Shown: in pieces, positions 10,549 through 63,686 of the stretch
Layout of the letters: each line of letters starts with the position of its first letter
How positions within the stretch are numbered: position 1 is the first letter of the stretch
Virus record (IMG/VR): IMGVR_UViG_3300045988_071280
DNA length: 64,000 nt
Source of the DNA: a virus
Direction: 5' to 3' (one strand)
Translations under genes and position numbers: made by a program
The notes under the pieces: generated by a model
Databases searched by the model: none
Seen by the model: the letters and a program-made list of their open reading frames with translations, nothing else
Told to the model about the DNA's origin: nothing

Positions 10549-10574
10549 CTTTAACAACCATTAAACACAAGACC

Positions 10575-10844
10575 ATGAAAATAGTAGTTAACAGATCCGG
10601 CGTTGGGTTAAATCTCTCCTTATCCGCGATAGAGTACTTAATTAAGTACAAGACAATCAAATCCTTATCTGATGTGGAAAACCTCGATCGATCCAACCCA
10701 AGATTAGTAAGATGTATTGAGGTATTAGGCGATGATTCATCATTAGATATACTAACCGTGATCACAGTCAGAGATGATTTTAAATATAAAATCTCTGAAA
10801 TTAAAGTAAACAATATCCACAGAGAAATTATTCTTATGGAGTAA
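10575..10844 (+). CDS. hypothetical protein
   Basis: ORF track. Preferred over the antisense ORF 10463-10813, which overlaps tRNA-Cys. Confidence 0.5.
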   Translation: MKIVVNRSGVGLNLSLSAIEYLIKYKTIKSLSDVENLDRSNPRLVRCIEVLGDDSSLDILTVITVRDDFKYKISEIKVNNIHREIILME

Positions 10845-11032: not shown

Positions 11033-11102
11033 TTCTTAGTAGTTTAACTGGTGAAAACGTCACGTACAGTAGAAAATATTAGTTCGAATCTAATCTAAGA
11101 AG
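11033..11102 (+). tRNA. tRNA-like element with no foldable anticodon arm (degenerate tRNA or pseudogene)
   Basis: Good acceptor (ttcttag/ctaagaa), D arm (gttt/aaac, loop with GG) and T arm (attag-ttcgaat-ctaat). The 18 nt in between (tcacgtacagtagaaaat) give no 5-bp stem with a 7-nt loop. Confidence 0.35.
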
Positions 11103-11270: not shown

Positions 11271-11353
11271 TGCGGGGTAGTGTAAAGGTAACATCCTAGG
11301 CTCATAACCTAGAGAAGCGAAGAGCGTTGTTGGTTCGAATCCAACTCCCGCTA
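11271..11353 (+). tRNA. atypical class II-like tRNA: CAU anticodon plus 16-nt variable arm
   Basis: Anticodon arm ctagg-ctCATaa-cctag is perfect. D stem gtgt/acat. The variable region agaagcgaagagcgtt folds as a 4-bp stem with a 5-nt loop. T arm gttgg-ttcgaat-ccaac. The acceptor has a U1-U72 mismatch and discriminator A. Confidence 0.6.
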
Positions 11354-11438
11354 CTAATTATGGTTATATAACCAGAATTAAACATGTTAGCTATAGAGAG
11401 TGTTAGAAATAATACTCTCCTATTTAAATATTTAAAAT

Positions 11439-11663
11439 ATGTCAGCTGAATGCAAAGATTGTGGAATGATCTATAATGGATTCGATTTCCATATGGTTAT
11501 GTTACATACTTCTTTATGGGAGGAGGTTAGTAATGGAGATGTAGAGATATGTTTATGTGATAAATGTATAGAAAAAAGACTTGGAAGAAAGATTGCTAGA
11601 GAAGATCTAATTCCAAATATTCCTGTTAATAATTTATATATACAAATGTATCTAGATTTATAA
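11439..11663 (+). CDS. small zinc-ribbon protein
   Basis: CKDCG...CLCDKC motifs. Confidence 0.55.
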   Translation: MSAECKDCGMIYNGFDFHMVMLHTSLWEEVSNGDVEICLCDKCIEKRLGRKIAREDLIPNIPVNNLYIQMYLDL

Positions 11664-11673
11664 TTTATCGATT

Positions 11674-12057
11674 ATGAAAAAGAGAAAACTCCCGAAAGAA
11701 GTAAAGAGATGGATTAAATTTTTTATAAAAACTAATGCTTATTATAATTTTGATTGGGCATTTATATTGGATATGGAGAAGGAGAAATTATCTCAGTGTA
11801 TTAAATTCTATACTAATAATGGATGTCATGTTAATAATGATAGGATAATTTCGAAGATGAAATTAGCTGTGAGATTATTAGATATTGCTATAGATGAGGA
11901 TTTAGATTTTAAAGGTTATATAAATACCAGGAATATAAATAGATTTCTCTCTATAGATAAATATAATATTGATATTCTTCCACTTCTCCGAACTAAAAAA
12001 GCATGGTATTTGTATAATAAATTAAGATACTATTATATGAAAGAATGGTGGGATTAA
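11674..12057 (+). CDS. hypothetical protein
   Basis: ORF track. Confidence 0.6.
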   Translation: MKKRKLPKEVKRWIKFFIKTNAYYNFDWAFILDMEKEKLSQCIKFYTNNGCHVNNDRIISKMKLAVRLLDIAIDEDLDFKGYINTRNINRFLSIDKYNIDILPLLRTKKAWYLYNKLRYYYMKEWWD

Positions 12058-12711
12058 TTTATTATACTATAATAATAAAATTAGTCAGCAAATAGTCTAC
12101 AATTTACTTACAAAATACTTAATATAATTAAATTTATTTAAATTATAAATATATCTTATACAATCTTATATAAAACAATTTGTTATGTAATATAATAAGC
12201 TATAGTGCACGTATCATAAGTTAGAGAGGAGTAACTTCCTATTGATTGATAAACTGTTAATGACAGATTATAATATTTTAAATATTTCCTTATGGATTAA
12301 TCTGATAAACCGTATACCGGGAGTTGATATACTTATAAATATCTAATAAATTCATTACATAGGAAATTTATTAATATAAAAAATCAGTTCAGAATATTTA
12401 AGGTATTATAACGTGAGAATTTTACGTAAAGAATTCTGTTTCAACTCAAAGTTGATAGTTTTATGGTTTTTATGATAATTTCTGAATTAAGTAAGAAAGT
12501 AAAAAACTTGGTTTTGTAAAATTGACAAATTTACAAATCACTCTACTCACTGAGTGAATCTGAACGTAACTTATCGGAAGGATGTGAGAAAGTCAAATAG
12601 AGTAAGTGTACGAAAGTCGGACTGCTCGAAAGTTTAAATAGATTGTTACTATGGAATGTTCTTCCATTCTAAATTTAGACTTTAAATATATGTTACTTGG
12701 AGGATAGGGAT

Positions 12712-12764
12712 CAATCTTAATCGTTGTTAGGCTCCACAACTCGAAGAGATTAAGATTGTTTTTT
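12712..12764 (+). terminator. long hairpin followed by T6 (terminator or internal domain of the candidate RNA)
   Basis: caatcttaatc/gattaagattg is an 11-bp perfect stem enclosing a second stem gttgt/acaac, followed by tttttt. Confidence 0.5.
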
Positions 12765-13099
12765 AAATAGTTAAAATTATCCATATAAAATATGAGATAA
12801 ATTTAAAATATTAGATGTAGCAAAGTCAGTGAAGTTAAATACAGAAATACGCTTCGTAAAAGAACCTGTAGTCCTTAAAAGGATAGTGGTGATACTGAGC
12901 CAATCTATTTATATAGAAGGTAAGATTCCAAAAGCTACAATATTTATAGGGAATCAATCATGTAAGAAATTACATGAAAACTCTGATAATCTACAGTGCC
13001 TTTGTAGAAAAACAGAGGATGAAGTTAAGGCACAACTTCATTGGGATATATTCCCGGTGAAAGAGGTTTTATATATCTCTGGATCTGATTATTTAATAG

Positions 13100-13162
13100 T
13101 ACTTTGTGCATCGGATGCACTCGGAATGCCGCGAGGTTAAGGTTCGACTCCTTACAAAGTAC
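13100..13162 (+). other. compact tRNA-like structure (acceptor plus T arm; miniature D arm and aberrant anticodon region)
   Basis: tactttg ... taagg-ttcgact-cctta-caaagta gives a 7-bp acceptor and a canonical T arm. The internal 30 nt (gcat-cgg-atgc; ctcg-8 nt-cgag) are too short for a normal tRNA. No encoded CCA. Confidence 0.4.
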
Positions 13163-13189
13163 CTAATATTAATTTAAAAATAAAATTAT

Positions 13190-14089
13190 ATGGAAATTAG
13201 TAATAAAAATAAAGTATTTTTTGGAGAAGTTGGAGTTACATCTACATCTGCTACATACTTGTGTAATATAGCTAGAGAGTTATTGAAAGATCTAGAAGCT
13301 TCTTTAAATAATGTCTCATTTATTACGGAAGAAGTTAGTATACTAGGATCTGAAAATACAGTTAAAACTAAAGAAGGATATAACATATCAGAATTATCTG
13401 ATTTAGATTCCAAACTTGTGGAAGCAGCTGAATTAAAAGCATTTATTGCTTGGATGAGTGAAGGGATAAAAGCAAAGGAATCAGAAAATACTAGAGTATC
13501 ACAATATACTTTAGAAGACTATATATCCGATTTTCCTGAAGAAGCAGTTTCCAAGGTTAAGGAGTTTAAGAAAGATTTTGAATATGGAATTGGGAAATTA
13601 TCAATCTCCGATAGAGTTAAATTTCTATATTCCGAAGCTTTGGTATCTTCAATTGGGGAGTATATTCACAAAAATGGCTCACTAAAAAAAGCTTATGAAG
13701 AGTTATTAGATATAGCTCATAATAAGGTTAATGTGGAAACAGACACAAGAGATAGTTTAGTACTACTTACGAATAAGATACCTAGTGTAGATGTTAAAGA
13801 TGTGGAAAAGATACTTCTTAAATATCAAAATTTAAGAAGAGAACATGAGAAAGAATTAAATTTTATTAAATCTAAATTAAAGAGTCTTGATCATGAATAT
13901 AGAGTACATTTTAATTTAGAACATAAATCAGAATTAGAGCGATATAAGCAGGAAATGGGTATTTTACAGTCTAAATATCACGCATATGTTTTAAATAAAA
14001 TGAAGGAAATTGAGAATTTGAAAATTATCATTCCAAAAGAGTTAGAAAAAATTTACAATCATTTAGAAATAATATCTAAAGAAAAATAA
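13190..14089 (+). CDS. hypothetical protein (coiled-coil-rich C-terminus)
   Basis: ORF track. Confidence 0.65.
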   Translation: MEISNKNKVFFGEVGVTSTSATYLCNIARELLKDLEASLNNVSFITEEVSILGSENTVKTKEGYNISELSDLDSKLVEAAELKAFIAWMSEGIKAKESENTRVSQYTLEDYISDFPEEAVSKVKEFKKDFEYGIGKLSISDRVKFLYSEALVSSIGEYIHKNGSLKKAYEELLDIAHNKVNVETDTRDSLVLLTNKIPSVDVKDVEKILLKYQNLRREHEKELNFIKSKLKSLDHEYRVHFNLEHKSELERYKQEMGILQSKYHAYVLNKMKEIENLKIIIPKELEKIYNHLEIISKEK

Positions 14090-58354: not shown

Positions 58355-61300
58355 ATGTACAATGATCAATCTAATGCTTTAGGAGAATTTATTTTTCAAT
58401 CTAAATATGCTAGATATAATTCTAATCTGAAAAGGAAAGAGACCTTTGAGGAATCTGTAGATAGAATATTACAGATGCATTTAAAACATCTTAAAGATAA
58501 ATATCCAGAAGTATTAAATAATGCAGAATTTAATAATGATTTATTAGAAGCCTTTGAGGAGTATAAAAATAAAAATGTTTATGGATCTCAGAGAGCTTTG
58601 CAATTCGGAGGTGATCCTATTTTAAGAAAGAATGAAAAAATCTTCAATTGTTCATATACTTATATAGATGATCTTGAGAGATTTAAACAAATTGAGTATT
58701 TACTATTATGTGGTTGTGGAGTGGGATGTTCTGTTGAATATAAACATGTGAATACACTTCCTGAGATGGCAGAAGTACTTAATAGTTCAGTTGAAGAGTA
58801 TATAATCGAGGATAGTATTGAAGGATGGTCAAATTCTATAGATAGACTAATTCGATATTATTTTAATTCGGATATAGCATATCCTAGATTTGATTATTCT
58901 AAAATCAGACCTAATGGAAGTTTGATATCAGGAGGATTTTTAGCTCCTGGCCCTGATGGTTTAAGAAATGCTCTAAATAAAATAGACTCTTTACTTAATA
59001 TTATTCATAAAACTACTAAAAGATTATCTCCACTTAACTGTGCTGATATATTATCACACTGTGCTGATTCTGTTCTCAGTGGTGGCGTCCGTTAGACATT
59101 GGCGGCTTATAATAGTAATATTATAATGATAATTCTGTGAATTCAGGGAATATCTTATATAGATAAGACAATCCTGATCCAAGCACTTAAATATAGTGAA
59201 GGAGCAACGACTATCCCAGACGTGGGAGTAGGGTAATATCATCTACCCGAAGCGCAGAACATCCTATTAAAGGATGATGATATAGTCTAAACTATATAGT
59301 GATATATAGAGTCTTTGCGATGTCTACGTGGAGACGATGATATAATAACTAATAAAGGATTAGTTAAATTAAAAAATATTAAAAATGGAGATTTAGTATT
59401 AACACATGATGGATCTTTTCAAAAAGTTATTAACAAGGAAAATAATGGGATTAGAAAAGTAGATAGAATAACTACGAATTTAAATATAAATTATTCTACA
59501 AATAATCATAGGTGGTTAGTATTAAATAATCTTTCTGGAGAATTTAAGGAAGTGTATGCATCAGATTTAAAAGAGGGGGATGTTTTATTATTAAATAACA
59601 GAAGTGTATCAGGAGAATATCAGGATTTTCCTAAATATACTGATTTAAAATTACCTAAATTAGATGAAGATTTAGCTTGGTTTATTGGATATTTCTTAGG
59701 GAATGGTAATGTATCTACTAGAACTAGATCTGATACTGGGTTTGAAGATAATAAATTTAGAGTTTGTATCCCAACTAATTACCCTACTATAGTTAATAAG
59801 GTAAAGAGTATCTTTGAAAAAATTGTTGGAACATATAGTATACATAAAAAGAAAAGTGCTATAGAACTTACATCAAGTAAAAAGTGTTTTGTTGAATATT
59901 TTCTAAATATCAAACAACCTAATACTCCAATCCAAATTCCGGATTTTATAAAACAGAATACATCATCTATACAATTAGCATTCTTAGCTGGAGTATTAGA
60001 TTCAGATGGAAGTGTTAGAAATGATAATAAGAATGGAAAAGGATATGGACAAATTACTTTAAATAGTTCTAAATATTCTATATTTATTACTCAACTTCAA
60101 GCTTTATACAATTTAAATGGAATTATTACTAAGACTCAAACAAAAATTAGAAAAGGAAAATCTAATGAGTATATTCTTAAAACAGTTTCATTTAAATATA
60201 GAAAAGAATGTGTAGAGAAATTAAGTCTATATTCCGAAAAGCTTAAGGAAGATTATATTTTAGAAGAAATTTCTAAAGAGAAAGACGGAATTTATTTTCC
60301 TAAATATTTAGCAATAAGAGGAGAAGGTAATAAGATTTGGAATAGTTGTAAAAGATGTTCTTTAAATAAAGTATTAGAATATTATCCAGATTTAAATTAC
60401 ATTCCTGCTGTAATTACTAATATAGAAAAGGACGTTGAAGAAGTAGAAGTATTTGATATAGAAGTAGAAAATAATCATAACTTTTATGTAAATGGAGTAC
60501 TAACACATAATTCTGCTTTAGCTATATTATTCTCTCCTAATGATGAGGAGATGTATAATTCTAAAGTAGGTAATTGGTTTTATGATAATCCTCAACGTGG
60601 AAGATATAATGCTTCTGTTGCTTTGGAGAGAAGTGATGATAATAAAGAAGTATTTAATAAAATCTTTGAATCTACTAAAGAATATGGAGAACCTGGGTTT
60701 TTCTTTAGGTCTGATTCTGGTATAGGATGTAATCCATAAAATGATGTGGCTATATATAGTGATATATATAGAAAACTAGGCTAATTCGGGGAATCTCTTA
60801 TTTAATAAGACAATCCCGAGCTAAGTGATTAAATATTTAATCTAAATGTGTAACGACTATCCTGAAAAGGAGTAGAACCAAGTGGTTCGAAATGCCTAGC
60901 GTCTTATATTAAATATATAAGATGATGATATAGTCTAATCTCTATAGTGATATAGAGGATCTTTAATTAGATCAGATAAGAAGTAACGAGCTTATCTTAA
61001 TATAATGGTTTTGAAATAGGTTTTAAACCAGTATTAGAAATACAGAAACCTGATGGAGTATCTAAACAAACTGGGATACAGTTTTGTAATTTGATCTCCA
61101 TCTCAGGTAAAGAATCCACAACAGAAGAGAAATTCTATAAACAATGTAAAGCAGCTGCTACTATTGGAACAATTCAAGCTACATATAATTCCTTCCCTTT
61201 CTTAGGTGAAGTAACAGAGCAATTAGCTAAGAATGATCCATTAATTGGAGTATCTATTAGCGGGATTATGATGAATCCTGATATATTATTAAATAAAAAT

Positions 61301-63686
61301 ATTCTACGTAAAGGAGCTGAGATTATTAAAGAGCAAAATAATAAAATAGCTAACTTACTAGGAATTAATCCTGCATCTAGGACTACTTGTATTAAGCCTA
61401 AAAATATGATTAAATAGTAGGTTTATAGTAAGACATTTTTTAATTTTGTAGTATTATAAAAAATACTTAAAATTAAAAAATATGAAATCACAATTAATAA
61501 TCAAATTAGAAAATTTAAAAAATTTAAAAACTCTTGTTGAAGAAGAACTATATTCTGCAAAGGATATATGTAACTTTCTAGAATTACCAGAAGAAAAAAA
61601 TACTATTAGAAATATTAATAGTTACTTAAGACGATATAAAATAAAGTCTCCTTATCCAAAAATAACAGATCGTAATTCTAGAATTATAGAAAAATATAAA
61701 TCAAAAGTACCTGAATGGTGGAATCATCCAAAATTAAAAACTGTAATTGAATTTAAACTAAAAAATAATTTAGTTATAAATTATGCAGATAAGGATAAAA
61801 AAATTGCTAGATATGTAATCTCTGTAAAATATCATCCAAGAGCTTCATCTGCAAATCAAGTAAAGGCTCATATTATATTATGGGAATTACATAATAAACA
61901 ATTATTTCCTGATAATTATGTAATGATTCCAAAAGACGGAAATTTTTTAAATTTAAATATTGATAATTTTGATGTAATGTCAAACGAAGAATATAGATCT
62001 ATCACAGCTACTAGTAAAAAAAATCATTTTTATACTACTGGTAGTAAATCTGGAGTATGTTATAAAGGAGGATGGAAAACTATCTCTAAAAAATTTCTTC
62101 AGACAAATACATCATGCGAAATATGTGGATGTTCAAATAAATATAAGTTAAATGTACATCATATAATTAGCTACTATTTATTTGATAAATCTAAGGATGC
62201 ACATTTTTTAGAAAACTTAATTTGTTTATGTGATTCATGTCATCAAAATCTACATTTAGGAAAATTAAACTTATTGGGCATCTTATCTGAAAAGATAAGA
62301 TTAAAACTTCTTAAATTGCTGGAAACACTTAAAGAAAAATTTAAAAATGATGATAAATTATTATTAGTAAATTTTTCAATTAAGTCAATCAGCAGCCAAG
62401 CTGATTTGAAATCAGAAGGTTCAACGACTATCTCGAAAGAGAGTACATCACAAGCTAATGGTGATGGAAATAGGAAGCATCTTAACTCAAATGAGAAAGA
62501 TGATGATATAGTCTAATCTATATGGTGACATATAGCAGTTCATAGGAGAACGTATATAAGAGTTGCGTCTTATATAGAATATATAATGGATGGAAATATA
62601 AGTACCTTAACTGGAAACACTCCTGGATGTCATGGTCAACATGCGAAAAGATATATCCGGAGAGTTCAGGTTAATAAAGAAGAAGAAGCAGGTAAAGTAT
62701 ACGCTAAATATAATCCTAAAGCAGTAGTAGAATCTGTTTGGTCTAATAATCATACTGATAATTGTATTATGTTCGCAATAGAATCGGATGATAACGTTAA
62801 AACCAAATCGGAATTATTAGGAATTAGACAATTAGAAGTAGTTAAATTACTATATAATAACTGGATTCTTCCAGGAATGGTAGATCCTACTAATCCTGTA
62901 TGTAATAATGTATCTAATACTGTTATAGTTCCAAATCAAGATTGGCATAGAGTAAAAGATTGGGTATGGAATAATAAAAACTTTATTGCTGGAGTATCAT
63001 TTATTCCTTCAACTGGAGACATTACTTTTACACAACCTCCATACTCAGAAGTATTTATTCCAGAAGAATTGGTAGAAATGTATGGAGACGGAGTAATATT
63101 TGCCTCAGGTTTAATCGTAGACGCAGAAAAAACTTTCGGAAATTTATGGAGAGCTTGCGATACATTTAATTATAAAGGGGAGAAGTTATATTCTACTGTT
63201 GAAGATGCTAAAGAATTTATTAAAGAACTTAATGTAACAGAAGATCCCTCTTATTTAAATAAACCTCATTCTGAATGGGTAAAAGCTAATTCAATTCAAT
63301 ATAATAATTGGGTTAAAGTATTATCCACATTGGGATATACAGAAGAATTTATAGATGAAATTTTAGATTCTGACATAGAAATTCCAATTGCAGAAATTCA
63401 GAAGTATTTAGATAAAACAGCATTTACTAATGTAAAAAATCTAAATGCTAAGAGAGATATAATGCGGAGAATGAAAAAATTCGGAGATACATATTTTGGA
63501 GAAGATTATAACACTATGATTGAAGCTCTTAAATATGTACAATTATATCACGATTGGTGTGATATAACTAGAAACTATACTCCTATCGACTGGACTATAG
63601 TTAAATGGAAAAAAGTACTGATCGATGCAGATACAACAGGAGCTCAGGCCTGTTCTGGAGGACAATGTGATATAACTAAAATATAA
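58355..63686 (+). CDS. nrdJ: class II (B12-type, NrdJ-like) ribonucleotide reductase: four exons (58355-59092, 59318-60737, 61008-61399, 62589-63686) plus an intein in exon 2
   Basis: N-terminus FQSKYARYNSNLKRKETFEESVDR. Splicing plus intein removal restores SGGVR|R|SALAILF, GIGCNP|CFEIGF (NPC thiyl-radical loop) and TTCIKP|DGNISTLTG. The extein total is 2457 nt, in frame. The class assignment rests on motif memory only. Confidence 0.8.
59093..59317 (+). mobile_element. ORF-less group I intron (family 1, td-like), 225 nt
   Basis: Begins after ..gtccgt| and ends ..gtctttg|cga. Contains agacaatcctgatccaagc, caacgactatcccagacgtgggagtagggt, gatgatatagtctaa and the hairpin ctatatagtgatatatag. Confidence 0.8.
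59321..60511 (+). mobile_element. intein (397 aa) with LAGLIDADG endonuclease domain
   Basis: Starts CLRGDDDIITNKG, block B TNNH, DOD motifs LAWFIGYFLGNGNV and LAFLAGVLDSDGSV, ends NFYVNGVLTHN followed by extein Ser. It sits inside the RNR motif GGVRR|SA. Confidence 0.9.
60738..61007 (+). mobile_element. ORF-less group I intron (family 1, td-like), 270 nt
   Basis: Splits the Cys codon of NPC (t|gt). Ends ..aatataatg|. Contains agacaatcccgagctaag, taacgactatcctgaaaaggagta, ttcgaaatgcctagc and gatgatatagtctaa. Confidence 0.8.
61441..61448 (+). promoter_or_regulatory. -7 box TAATTTTG inside the intron, upstream of the HEG
   Basis: Exact TAnnTTTG, 33 nt upstream of the ATG at 61482. Confidence 0.4.
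61482..62516 (+). CDS. intron-encoded HNH homing endonuclease
   Basis: CEICGCSNKYKLNVHHIISY...NLICLCDSCHQNLH is a classic HNH with a zinc-binding Cys pair. The last ~40 codons overlap the ribozyme core blocks. Confidence 0.85.
   Translation: MKSQLIIKLENLKNLKTLVEEELYSAKDICNFLELPEEKNTIRNINSYLRRYKIKSPYPKITDRNSRIIEKYKSKVPEWWNHPKLKTVIEFKLKNNLVINYADKDKKIARYVISVKYHPRASSANQVKAHIILWELHNKQLFPDNYVMIPKDGNFLNLNIDNFDVMSNEEYRSITATSKKNHFYTTGSKSGVCYKGGWKTISKKFLQTNTSCEICGCSNKYKLNVHHIISYYLFDKSKDAHFLENLICLCDSCHQNLHLGKLNLLGILSEKIRLKLLKLLETLKEKFKNDDKLLLVNFSIKSISSQADLKSEGSTTISKESTSQANGDGNRKHLNSNEKDDDIV

Follow-up and report, generated by a model that had tools for sequence, protein, structure and literature searches.

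Phage-encoded structured RNAs are known from the neighbourhood of transfer RNA (tRNA) gene clusters. ROOL and GOLLD, phage RNAs near tRNA islands whose function is unknown, both contain covarying kissing loops; GOLLD combines a conserved 3′ region with a variable 5′ region, and the covarying kissing loop of ROOL, first read as a tertiary contact, proved to be intermolecular (PMC12286853). Two small RNAs of the T4 tRNA region, RNAC and RNAD, are expressed in infection, and their role is also unknown (PMC3014915, PMC9697503). YrlA, one of the Ro60-bound bacterial Y RNAs and a non-coding RNA with tRNA-like T and D arms, is described as being at times phage-encoded (PMC4201824). Here, we describe a predicted RNA of ~355 nucleotides (nt), not catalogued before, at positions 12812–13166 of a 64,000-nt stretch of the virus record IMGVR_UViG_3300045988_071280 (the window), which belongs to a large human-gut crAss-like phage. 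Its novelty lies not in the setting, since phage structured RNAs near tRNA islands have been described, but in the fusion of a tRNA-island phage RNA to a tRNA module without an anticodon.

The sequence-only reading of this DNA, made from the letters of the window, had placed a candidate undescribed structured RNA of ~1.1 kb, ending in a tRNA-like domain, in the largest non-coding gap of the genome. The gap was found again: with one doubtful open reading frame (ORF) starting with GTG set aside, the + strand of the 8.5–64 kb part of the window contains no stretch longer than 12058–13189 (1132 nt) that is free of ORFs of at least 60 codons. The sequence does become less AT-rich from ~12540, as had been stated (Table 1). 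The stems that had been listed are present as well: an 11-base-pair (bp) stem caatcttaatc/gattaagattg enclosing gttgt/acaac (12712–12764), the pairs atggaa/ttccat, catgta/tacatg, gaagtt/aacttc, and ctaca/tgtag, and two cgaaag motifs. However, the gap is composite and consists of a spacer cassette (12058–12811) and the structured RNA (12812–13166). The RNA is ~355 nt long instead of ~1.1 kb, and the stems of 12540–12780 sit in the cassette, which is missing from three loci (L035, L044, and L074) whose RNA is 97–99% identical. What stands is an undescribed structured RNA with a tRNA-like 3′ domain, on the + strand and inside a phage tRNA island. The finding is real, merits follow-up, and needs to be re-scoped to 12812–13166.

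The description of the gap as hairpin-rich holds for its right part. Folding of 12812–13166 gives a minimum free energy (MFE) z-score of −4.51, with none of 100 dinucleotide shuffles equally stable, so that the hairpins exceed chance there, whereas for 12530–12775 the z-score is −0.58 and 56 of 200 shuffles are equally stable. The z-score of about −4.5 obtained for 12530–13170 on both strands is carried by the 3′ part of that segment, because 12530–12775 alone gives the value just mentioned. In the comparative data, the left and right parts of the gap separate at 12811/12812; the left part is missing in most relatives, and the right part is found in all. A caution for genome scans follows from this case: unrelated swappable cassettes can inflate an apparent non-coding gap.

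Searches of IMG/VR, ENA, and Logan assemblies from the human gut with the neighbouring protein of 299 amino acids (aa), ORF299, and with short DNA patterns gave related loci (designated by L numbers below), whose contigs reach 168 kb. The RNA is kept in every related phage locus recovered, with 80–99% identity. The alignment used for scoring (A5) contains 22 distinct homologues, and a few more loci turned up later. Its sequences form four groups (A–D) of one phage clade, with evident recombination between the groups. Pattern scans of IMG/VR yielded nothing beyond the same 17 contigs; group D came from the metagenome scan, together with four chance matches (L037, L043, L047, and L048). Searches guided by ORF299 reached homologues of the protein down to ~30% identity, from which the RNA is absent.

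The structure scored on A5 was the RNAalifold consensus with one loop–loop helix added, 100 pairs in 20 helices in total. Standard pairs are formed in 99.2% of the cells, and 13 pairs (52 cells) are changed on both sides, so the covariation between related phage genomes that the sequence-only reading had named as a mark of such an RNA is present. None of 500 column shuffles reached these covariation values. Over all scorings made, the number of double-changed pairs was 13–14. In slid controls, where the 3′ partners were moved by 1–3 columns, there were 0–4 double-changed pairs, and 33–52% of the cells were paired. Many of the pairs are G–U, which would be A–C mismatches on the opposite strand; therefore, the transcript runs rightward, in the direction of the tRNA genes and of the ORFs on either side. 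The comparative data show a modular RNA with an intricate predicted fold that is under selection, and we consider it highly probable that 12812–13166 is a functional structured RNA.

The differences between the groups along the element are scattered 1-nt and 2-nt indels. The GTG ORF of 103 codons (12829–13140) is split in L001 into fragments of 36, 30, and 38 codons, and stop codons are also present in relatives. Because of these non-triplet indels and stop codons, the ORF is ruled out as a gene; it has no Pfam or PHROG match. The suspicion that the two ORFs listed for the gap differ from real genes was thus justified for both of them, and no gene is called across the whole gap in an independent assembly with the same cassette (L075).

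Table 1. Coordinates of the structured RNA, its parts, and the surrounding features in the window
Feature	Position	Strand	Basis or remark
Conserved structured RNA, full length, ~355 nt	12812–13166	+	22 aligned homologues, covariation, MFE z-score; G+C 35.8%
5′ leader, 22 nt	12812–12833	+	Conserved motif GCAAAGUNAGUG
Body closed by P1	12834–13097	+	RNAalifold consensus, helix table
5′ accessory half of the body	12842–12980	+	Six hairpins; absent from group D
Hairpins of the 5′ half	12848–12870, 12871–12884, 12885–12896, 12899–12921, 12926–12953, 12959–12976	+	
Conserved 3′ core of the body	12981–13087	+	Kept in all four groups, group D included
Hairpins of the 3′ core	12981–13017 (bipartite, 4 × 4 A-rich internal loop), 13019–13041, 13043–13054, 13055–13087	+	
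Kissing-loop contact	12996–13033	+	Loop GUGCC (12996–13000) with loop GGCAC (13029–13033)
tRNA-like top-half module	13099–13166	+	Covariation and invariant T arm; CCA not encoded
Acceptor stem, 8 bp (7 + 1)	G13099–G13106 with C13155–C13162	+	Covariation
D-like hairpin GCAU-CGG-AUGC	13108–13118	+	Invariant GG
Short variable hairpin in the place of the anticodon arm	13120–13135	+	Allele comparison
T arm UAAGG-UUCGACU-CCUUA	13138–13154	+	Invariant
Trailer CUAA, without encoded CCA	3′ end of the module, to 13166	+	
Second, free-standing tRNA-like gene	11033–11102	+	46 bits on the Rfam tRNA model; no ARAGORN call
ORF299	13190–14089	+	Conserved neighbour gene, 24–31 nt 3′ of the RNA in every locus
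Variable spacer cassette	12058–12811	+	Between the ORF127 stop codon and the 5′ end of the RNA; AT-rich; no credible gene
Terminator-like long hairpin in the cassette	12712–12770	+	11-bp outer and 5-bp inner stem, then T6
Left part of the gap	12060–12539		G+C 20.8%
Middle part of the gap	12540–12811		G+C 30.5%
Whole window			G+C 27.7%

The body is closed by helix P1, in which GUUAAAUA (12834–12841) pairs with UAUUUAAU (13090–13097); in 20 sequences, P1 pairs throughout (100%), one A–U to G–U change is seen, and a single nucleotide separates its end at 13097 from the start of the acceptor stem at 13099. The leader may form a pseudoknot across P1, in which UCAGUG (12826–12831) would pair with UACUGA (12893–12898). 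These 6 bp are 99.2% paired, and a C–G to U–A change is found in six sequences. A local hairpin (12885–12888/12893–12896) competes with this pseudoknot and has about equal support. Pairing of the 5′ strand of the acceptor stem with the leader sequence CAAAGU was also considered and dropped, since a G-to-A change in group B breaks it.

In the 5′ half of the body, double-changed pairs are located in the hairpins 12899–12921 and 12959–12976. In the 3′ core, they are found in every helix except the 3-bp outer stem 13055–13057/13085–13087. In the kissing contact, the first and second hairpins of the core pair through their 7-nt loops. Groups A and B have GUGCC/GGCAC at this site, group C has GUACC/GGUAC, and group D has GUACU(C)/(G)AGUAC; of the five pairs, two are changed on both sides, and 100% of the cells pair. 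The predicted contact is compatible with either intramolecular or intermolecular pairing, between which covariation cannot distinguish.

Group D represents a short form of the RNA, found in L050, L051, L078, and L079 and in clusters miscalled as 389-aa proteins, and common in metagenomes. It lacks the leader, the 5′ strand of P1, and the 5′ half of the body; the 3′ core and the terminal module are retained and show many compensatory changes. The 5′ half, absent from this group, is dispensable. The minimal conserved unit corresponds to the short form and is ~185 nt long.

The terminal module resembles the upper half of a tRNA. The acceptor-like stem of 7 bp and the T arm with the ttcgact loop, reported at 13100–13162 by the sequence-only reading, are there, and the invariant pair G13099:C13162 extends the stem to 8 bp. 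The next pair, 13100:13161, is U–A, U–G, or C–G. The D-like stem covaries from GCAU/AUGC to GUAU/AUAC, a C–G to U–A replacement. In the position of the anticodon arm, a hairpin of 16–19 nt has at least five unrelated sequences, which are shuffled among near-identical backbones; a stem of ~4–6 bp is kept, with a loop of 5–8 nt of free sequence, and comparison of the L007 and L034 alleles reveals an A–U to G–C change in the stem. For the four alleles checked (L001 and L050 stand outside this check), the cloverleaf-like fold is the MFE structure or lies within 1.7 kcal/mol of it.

ARAGORN made no tRNA call on the module, and the Rfam tRNA model did not match it at E ≤ 10, even with its 83 nt alone. 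The one model that aligns is mascRNA-menRNA, which covers the acceptor stem and T arm with 18.1 bits and E = 0.086 on the 83 nt (threshold 42.5). Since ARAGORN and the Rfam models of tRNA and transfer-messenger RNA (tmRNA) are blind to the module and mascRNA alone aligns, the module is a tRNA “top half” and not a decoding tRNA. Its 7-bp acceptor stem continues directly into a 5-bp T stem, its T loop has the form UUCRANY, and its D loop contains GG; an anticodon stem with a 7-nt loop visible to tRNA covariance models is lacking. As in mascRNA-type RNAs, an anticodon-less cloverleaf is located directly 3′ of a longer structured RNA. This match is a likeness of design, not homology. A divergent suppressor tRNA, a class raised for Zeta phages by Yutin et al. 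2021 (PMC7886860), was considered and dropped, as the variable hairpin contains neither a constant CUA, UCA, or UUA triplet nor a 7-nt loop.

The second, free-standing tRNA-like gene of the island has a short segment instead of the anticodon arm, and ARAGORN is therefore silent. Its relatives keep the acceptor, D, and T arms, with the hairpins AAUC-UAAA-GAUU or AUUC-ACA-GAAU in place of the anticodon arm. The freedom of the anticodon arm in two tRNA-like genes fits selection for recognition of the top half, not for decoding. The phage tRNAs do not encode CCA either; thus, 3′ maturation by an endonuclease and CCA addition are expected for the whole island. Around the RNA, the order of genes is tRNA-Met, tRNA-Cys, the tRNA-like gene, tRNA-Met, and then tRNA-Gln. 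The tRNA-Met(CAT) at 11271–11354 (+ strand) is 84 nt long and has an extra arm unusually long for its anticodon; its group B counterpart has 73 nt (L001:3368–3440).

A search with the 4227 Rfam families was performed on the window at gathering thresholds and at E ≤ 1, and on 11900–13400 at E ≤ 10 with permissive filters. The suggestion that the RNA might belong to GOLLD or ROOL found no backing in it: the GOLLD, ROOL, tmRNA, RNase P, and group I intron models have no match in 11900–13400, the GOLLD, ROOL, and RNase P models have none in the whole window at E ≤ 1, and what the RNA shares with GOLLD and ROOL is limited to context and style. Outside this interval, the same library detected three group I introns and five tRNAs in the window. 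The only sub-threshold Rfam matches to the element are those to mascRNA and YrlA, the latter with 11 bits against a gathering threshold of 69. Two protein families, Ro60 and RtcB, are not among the 18 Pfam families detected (E ≤ 1e-5) in the 69 ORFs of at least 100 aa of the window, which covers 64 kb of the ~165-kb genome.

ARAGORN found no tmRNA, and the Rfam tmRNA models matched neither the window nor 11900–13400. Identity with tmRNA was rejected, since 48 nt separate the acceptor strands, C–G and not G–U is found at pair 3:70, and there is no conserved reading frame. Resemblances to RNase P RNA seen by eye (AAAGUC, ACAGAA) are adjacent to each other and not at opposite ends of the RNA, and they were given no weight. 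A group I intron was dismissed as well: the element has no match, and the same scan gives three introns at 59083–62535 with 80–99 bits.

No DNA similarity to GenBank phages was found by blastn with the region or by megablast with the 11 kb around it. A 22-mer of the tRNA-like module has no match in bacterial and archaeal genomes, and the only hit of an internal-pattern search of prokaryotic genomes, a chance match in a Halanaerobiaceae metagenome-assembled genome, was rejected by the nhmmer profile. No copy of the RNA is present in 185,579 species-representative prokaryotic genomes; therefore, these genomes contain neither a host or prophage copy nor a donor tRNA. Neither Rfam 15 nor the literature searched contains a description of the RNA, which may be one of the 10,006 candidates that Fremin et al. 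2023 list without names (PMC10690425).

When the RNA is compared with the systems named above, several common features can be noted. Like ROOL and GOLLD, it is phage-encoded, is located in or near a tRNA island, and has many hairpins and a covarying kissing loop; as in GOLLD, its 3′ region is conserved and its 5′ region is variable or dispensable. However, ROOL and GOLLD have ~580 nt and >800 nt, compared with ~355 nt here (185 nt in the short form), and this RNA differs from them in its built-in terminal tRNA-like module, its occurrence in a crAss-like, Bacteroidota-associated phage, and the lack of a match to their Rfam models. T4 RNAC and RNAD (species 1 and 2 RNAs) are likewise stable small RNAs inside a phage tRNA cluster, but the present RNA is larger and has no blastn similarity to T4 or any other GenBank phage. 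YrlA resembles it in carrying a tRNA-like T arm and D arm on a non-coding RNA, whereas the ends of YrlA form a Ro-binding stem and its tRNA-like part is internal; here, that part is terminal.

In the eukaryotic MALAT1/mascRNA and MEN-beta/menRNA pairs, a long structured RNA is also followed by a tRNA-like cloverleaf without a true anticodon arm, and the inferred logic is the same, as RNase P would make the 3′ end of the upstream RNA. The score of 18.1 against a threshold of 42.5 bits and the distance between eukaryotes and bacteriophages indicate convergence rather than homology. In addition, the end is protected by a triple helix in MALAT1, whereas here P1 would hold the 3′ end if the cleavage takes place. 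With tRNA and tmRNA, the module shares the 7 + 1-bp acceptor, the 5-bp T stem with the UUCGACU loop, the GG of the D-like loop, and the neighbourhood of tRNA genes. Unlike tRNA, it has no 7-nt anticodon loop and no constant anticodon; unlike tmRNA, it has no tag frame, and its 5′ acceptor strand lies beside the 3′ half and not ~300 nt away.

We infer the following scheme of transcription, cleavage, and effector role, and put its chances at about even: the element would be a stable non-coding RNA processed from the transcript of the tRNA island, with the body as the effector. The RNA would be transcribed rightward together with the tRNA island; co-transcription is assumed because no terminator precedes ORF299 and, in group B, a tRNA-Leu gene ends 4 nt before the RNA. 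Host tRNA-processing enzymes would then mature the transcript at the terminal module, which may serve as an RNase P and RNase Z site because the acceptor stem stacked on the T arm and the D/T elbow, features recognised by both enzymes, are kept. A cut by RNase P on the 5′ side of the module would release a body RNA of ~285 nt with its new 3′ end locked in P1. Given the single nucleotide between P1 and the acceptor stem, such a cut would leave both ends of the body base-paired, as is usual in stable RNAs. A cut by RNase Z on the 3′ side would free the mRNA of ORF299, as in tRNA punctuation or in MALAT1/mascRNA. The effector would be the body, above all the 3′ core compacted by the kissing loop, most likely acting during infection as a scaffold, either for a protein or for self-assembly.

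Several observations weigh against this scheme. Promoter scans, of both the sigma-70 type and the Bacteroidota −7 type, carry little information in such AT-rich DNA. Genomes with the cassette have a terminator-like hairpin 42 nt upstream of the RNA, so that a promoter of its own or read-through would be needed. The short form has no 5′ strand of P1, and the locked 3′ end fails there as described. The RNA is conserved about as much as the flanking genes, not more, and the four groups belong to one recombining clade only, which means that many of the covariations are single evolutionary events. Finally, the strict adjacency of ORF299 fits a cis-acting leader equally well.

Other explanations, of which the tRNA mimic, the cis-acting leader, and the oligomer discussed below are not mutually exclusive with the processing scheme, assign the function elsewhere. 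It is rather unlikely that the tRNA-like module itself is the effector and the body its carrier or regulator. After RNase P and RNase Z processing, it would then act as a CCA-tailed anticodon-less mimic, maybe aminoacylated, or it would be a decoy or sponge that captures a host factor binding the tRNA top half, for example EF-Tu, a modification enzyme, or a defence nuclease directed at tRNA. The top half is indeed the most conserved part, as a 24-nt stretch of it is identical across the four groups while the neighbouring protein falls to 67% identity; G13099 and C13162 are invariant next to a covarying pair, the GG of the D-like loop and the UUCGACU loop are invariant, and the island contains another anticodon-less tRNA-like gene. 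Histidine identity rests mainly on G−1:C73, which is read by histidyl-tRNA synthetase, and the 8-bp stem of the module is of the G(−1):C73 type; however, an invariant closing G:C is expected in any stem and alone does not point to histidine. Moreover, CCA is not encoded, the hypervariable arm speaks against mimicry of a specific anticodon and hence rules out a decoy for anticodon-reading nucleases, and the conserved covarying body would be left unexplained. A wider version of this idea seems to us quite unlikely: a class of anticodon-less mini-tRNAs of these abundant gut phages (11033–11102 free and 13099–13162 fused) would be matured, CCA-tailed, and perhaps charged, and would manipulate host translation or tRNA-directed immunity, with the body RNA delivering, regulating, or multimerising the mimic. 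The fused copy has the G−1:C73 signature. If true, this would be an undescribed phage counterpart of tRNA mimicry of the tmRNA or mascRNA type.

The constant distance to the ORF299 start in every locus of the four groups, with no terminator in between, and the location of a distant ORF299 homologue (L077) in a tRNA island as well fit a cis-acting 5′ leader, in which the whole element would control translation or stability of ORF299, possibly sensing a tRNA-related signal. We nevertheless find this unlikely: the ORF299 homologues with ~30% identity in L073 and L077 have no such RNA, an RNase P/RNase Z-like substrate before the start codon would tend to cut the leader off the message, group D does without half of the leader, and the Rfam scans gave no match to a riboswitch or T-box model. 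It is improbable that the RNA is a homo-oligomer in the manner of ROOL and GOLLD, with intermolecular loop–loop pairing in an RNA-only particle. Its two 7-nt loops can form 5–6 Watson–Crick pairs with covariation, the ROOL kissing loop turned out to be intermolecular (PMC12286853), and the phage tRNA islands are a similar genomic setting. Yet, the kissing hairpins are only 10 nt apart in sequence, which makes an intramolecular contact simpler, covariation is blind to the difference, and the RNA is far smaller than ROOL and GOLLD, to which it has no sequence or model similarity. As for a decaying tRNA pseudogene with a spacer, or a protein gene, the alignment essentially excludes both, even though the 103-codon ORF is open in the window and some gene callers extend ORF299 upstream into products of 325 aa and 389 aa. 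The frame is broken in relatives, as described above, and compensatory changes together with 99% pairing across groups whose flanking genes have 71–80% DNA identity are unexpected in decaying sequence.

The conserved RNA with its elaborate fold is in all probability a new functional element in the tRNA island of gut crAss-like phages, which are uncultured and poorly annotated, and gene callers currently misannotate it as an N-terminal extension of a protein. It is a small and tractable addition to the unsolved tRNA-adjacent phage RNAs, GOLLD, ROOL, and T4 RNAC and RNAD, and its 185-nt short form provides a minimal construct for structural and biochemical work. Its design, together with the second anticodon-less tRNA-like gene nearby, suggests that the host tRNA-processing machinery is used to punctuate transcripts or to make tRNA mimics.

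The cassette to the left of the RNA is treated as a variable, unremarkable spacer outside the conserved element. According to BLAST and alignment of the loci, it is carried only by the window and by L006, L009, L046, and L075. At exactly the same site, L035, L044, L074, and the large group B (L001-type) have an 87-nt tRNA-Leu(TAA) gene, and group C (L007-type) has ~45 nt. The limits of the swap are exactly the ORF127 stop codon and the 5′ end of the conserved element. ORFs inside the cassette have 20–63 codons, no genes are called there in L075, and the Rfam search of 11900–13400 at E ≤ 10 gave no match in it. The hairpin at 12712–12770 looks like an intrinsic terminator; it is also present in MFE folds, and a simple terminator scan missed it because the loop is too large for the scan. 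Hexamers resembling the sigma-70 consensus are present and carry little weight in such AT-rich DNA. The cassette was considered as a second structured RNA and rejected, given its z-score of −0.58 and a diversity too low for a covariation test. A piece of ~140 nt (12283–12422) recurs elsewhere in group B genomes (L001:4871–4985) with 76–83% identity, where it adjoins a truncated copy of a small zinc-ribbon ORF (a 74-aa ORF, 11439–11663 in the window); the small piece is possibly mobile or recombinogenic.

The ORF299 protein is helical or coiled-coil (AlphaFold2; predicted local distance difference test 82). Profile searches found no relatives in Pfam, PHROG, or PDB, and the best Foldseek match was no better than E = 0.29. 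ORF127, on the other side of the gap, belongs to no Pfam or PHROG family. Orthologues of ORF299 with ~30% identity have no such RNA upstream, and the nhmmer profile is blank in L073 and L077. In L073, a 37-nt spacer after a helicase-like ORF precedes the ORF299 homologue, and in L077, another small gene is located there. The tRNA island of L077, a distant crAss-like relative, also contains a 450-nt gap without a called gene (L077:1250–1700) and a weak tRNA of 38 bits that ARAGORN does not call (L077:1708–1778). The upstream extensions of ORF299 made by public gene callers run through the RNA. In L014, the ORF299 orthologue has an in-frame TAG (L014:6796–6798) at a Tyr codon that is conserved in all others; a point mutation or an assembly error could explain it, and so could amber reassignment, which has been reported in some crAss-like phages.

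ORF starts are located 25–27 nt after the 3′ ends of tRNAs or tRNA-like elements in two places, 10549–10575 (25 nt after tRNA-Cys) and 13162–13190 (ORF299, 27 nt after the module). This spacing suggests that 5′ ends of mRNAs are made by tRNA processing (tRNA punctuation). A Shine–Dalgarno sequence is missing from nearly all genes, as judged from 40 sampled start sites, which are preceded by A/T-rich sequence, and this is consistent with a Bacteroidota host. A special role of the RNA in translation, considered because ORF299 lacks a Shine–Dalgarno sequence, was dropped, since most of the phage genes lack one.

The window covers the early and replication region, and its PolA is 44–54% identical to those of cr111_1, cr116_1, and crAss001-type phages. 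The host phage is crAss-like and probably belongs to the Zeta group, an assignment that agrees with the genome size of 140–168 kb, the intron density, the occurrence in the gut only, and the lack of GenBank relatives (PMC7886860). The large-genome Zeta group accounts for 13–18% of crAss-like reads (PMC7886860). The three group I introns of the window are on the + strand, within 3.5 kb, and together with fragmented ORFs. According to Pfam and PHROG matches, whose positions were not mapped, the ORFs of the window include LAGLIDADG and HNH endonucleases, PolA fragments, a ribonucleotide reductase, and an intein domain.

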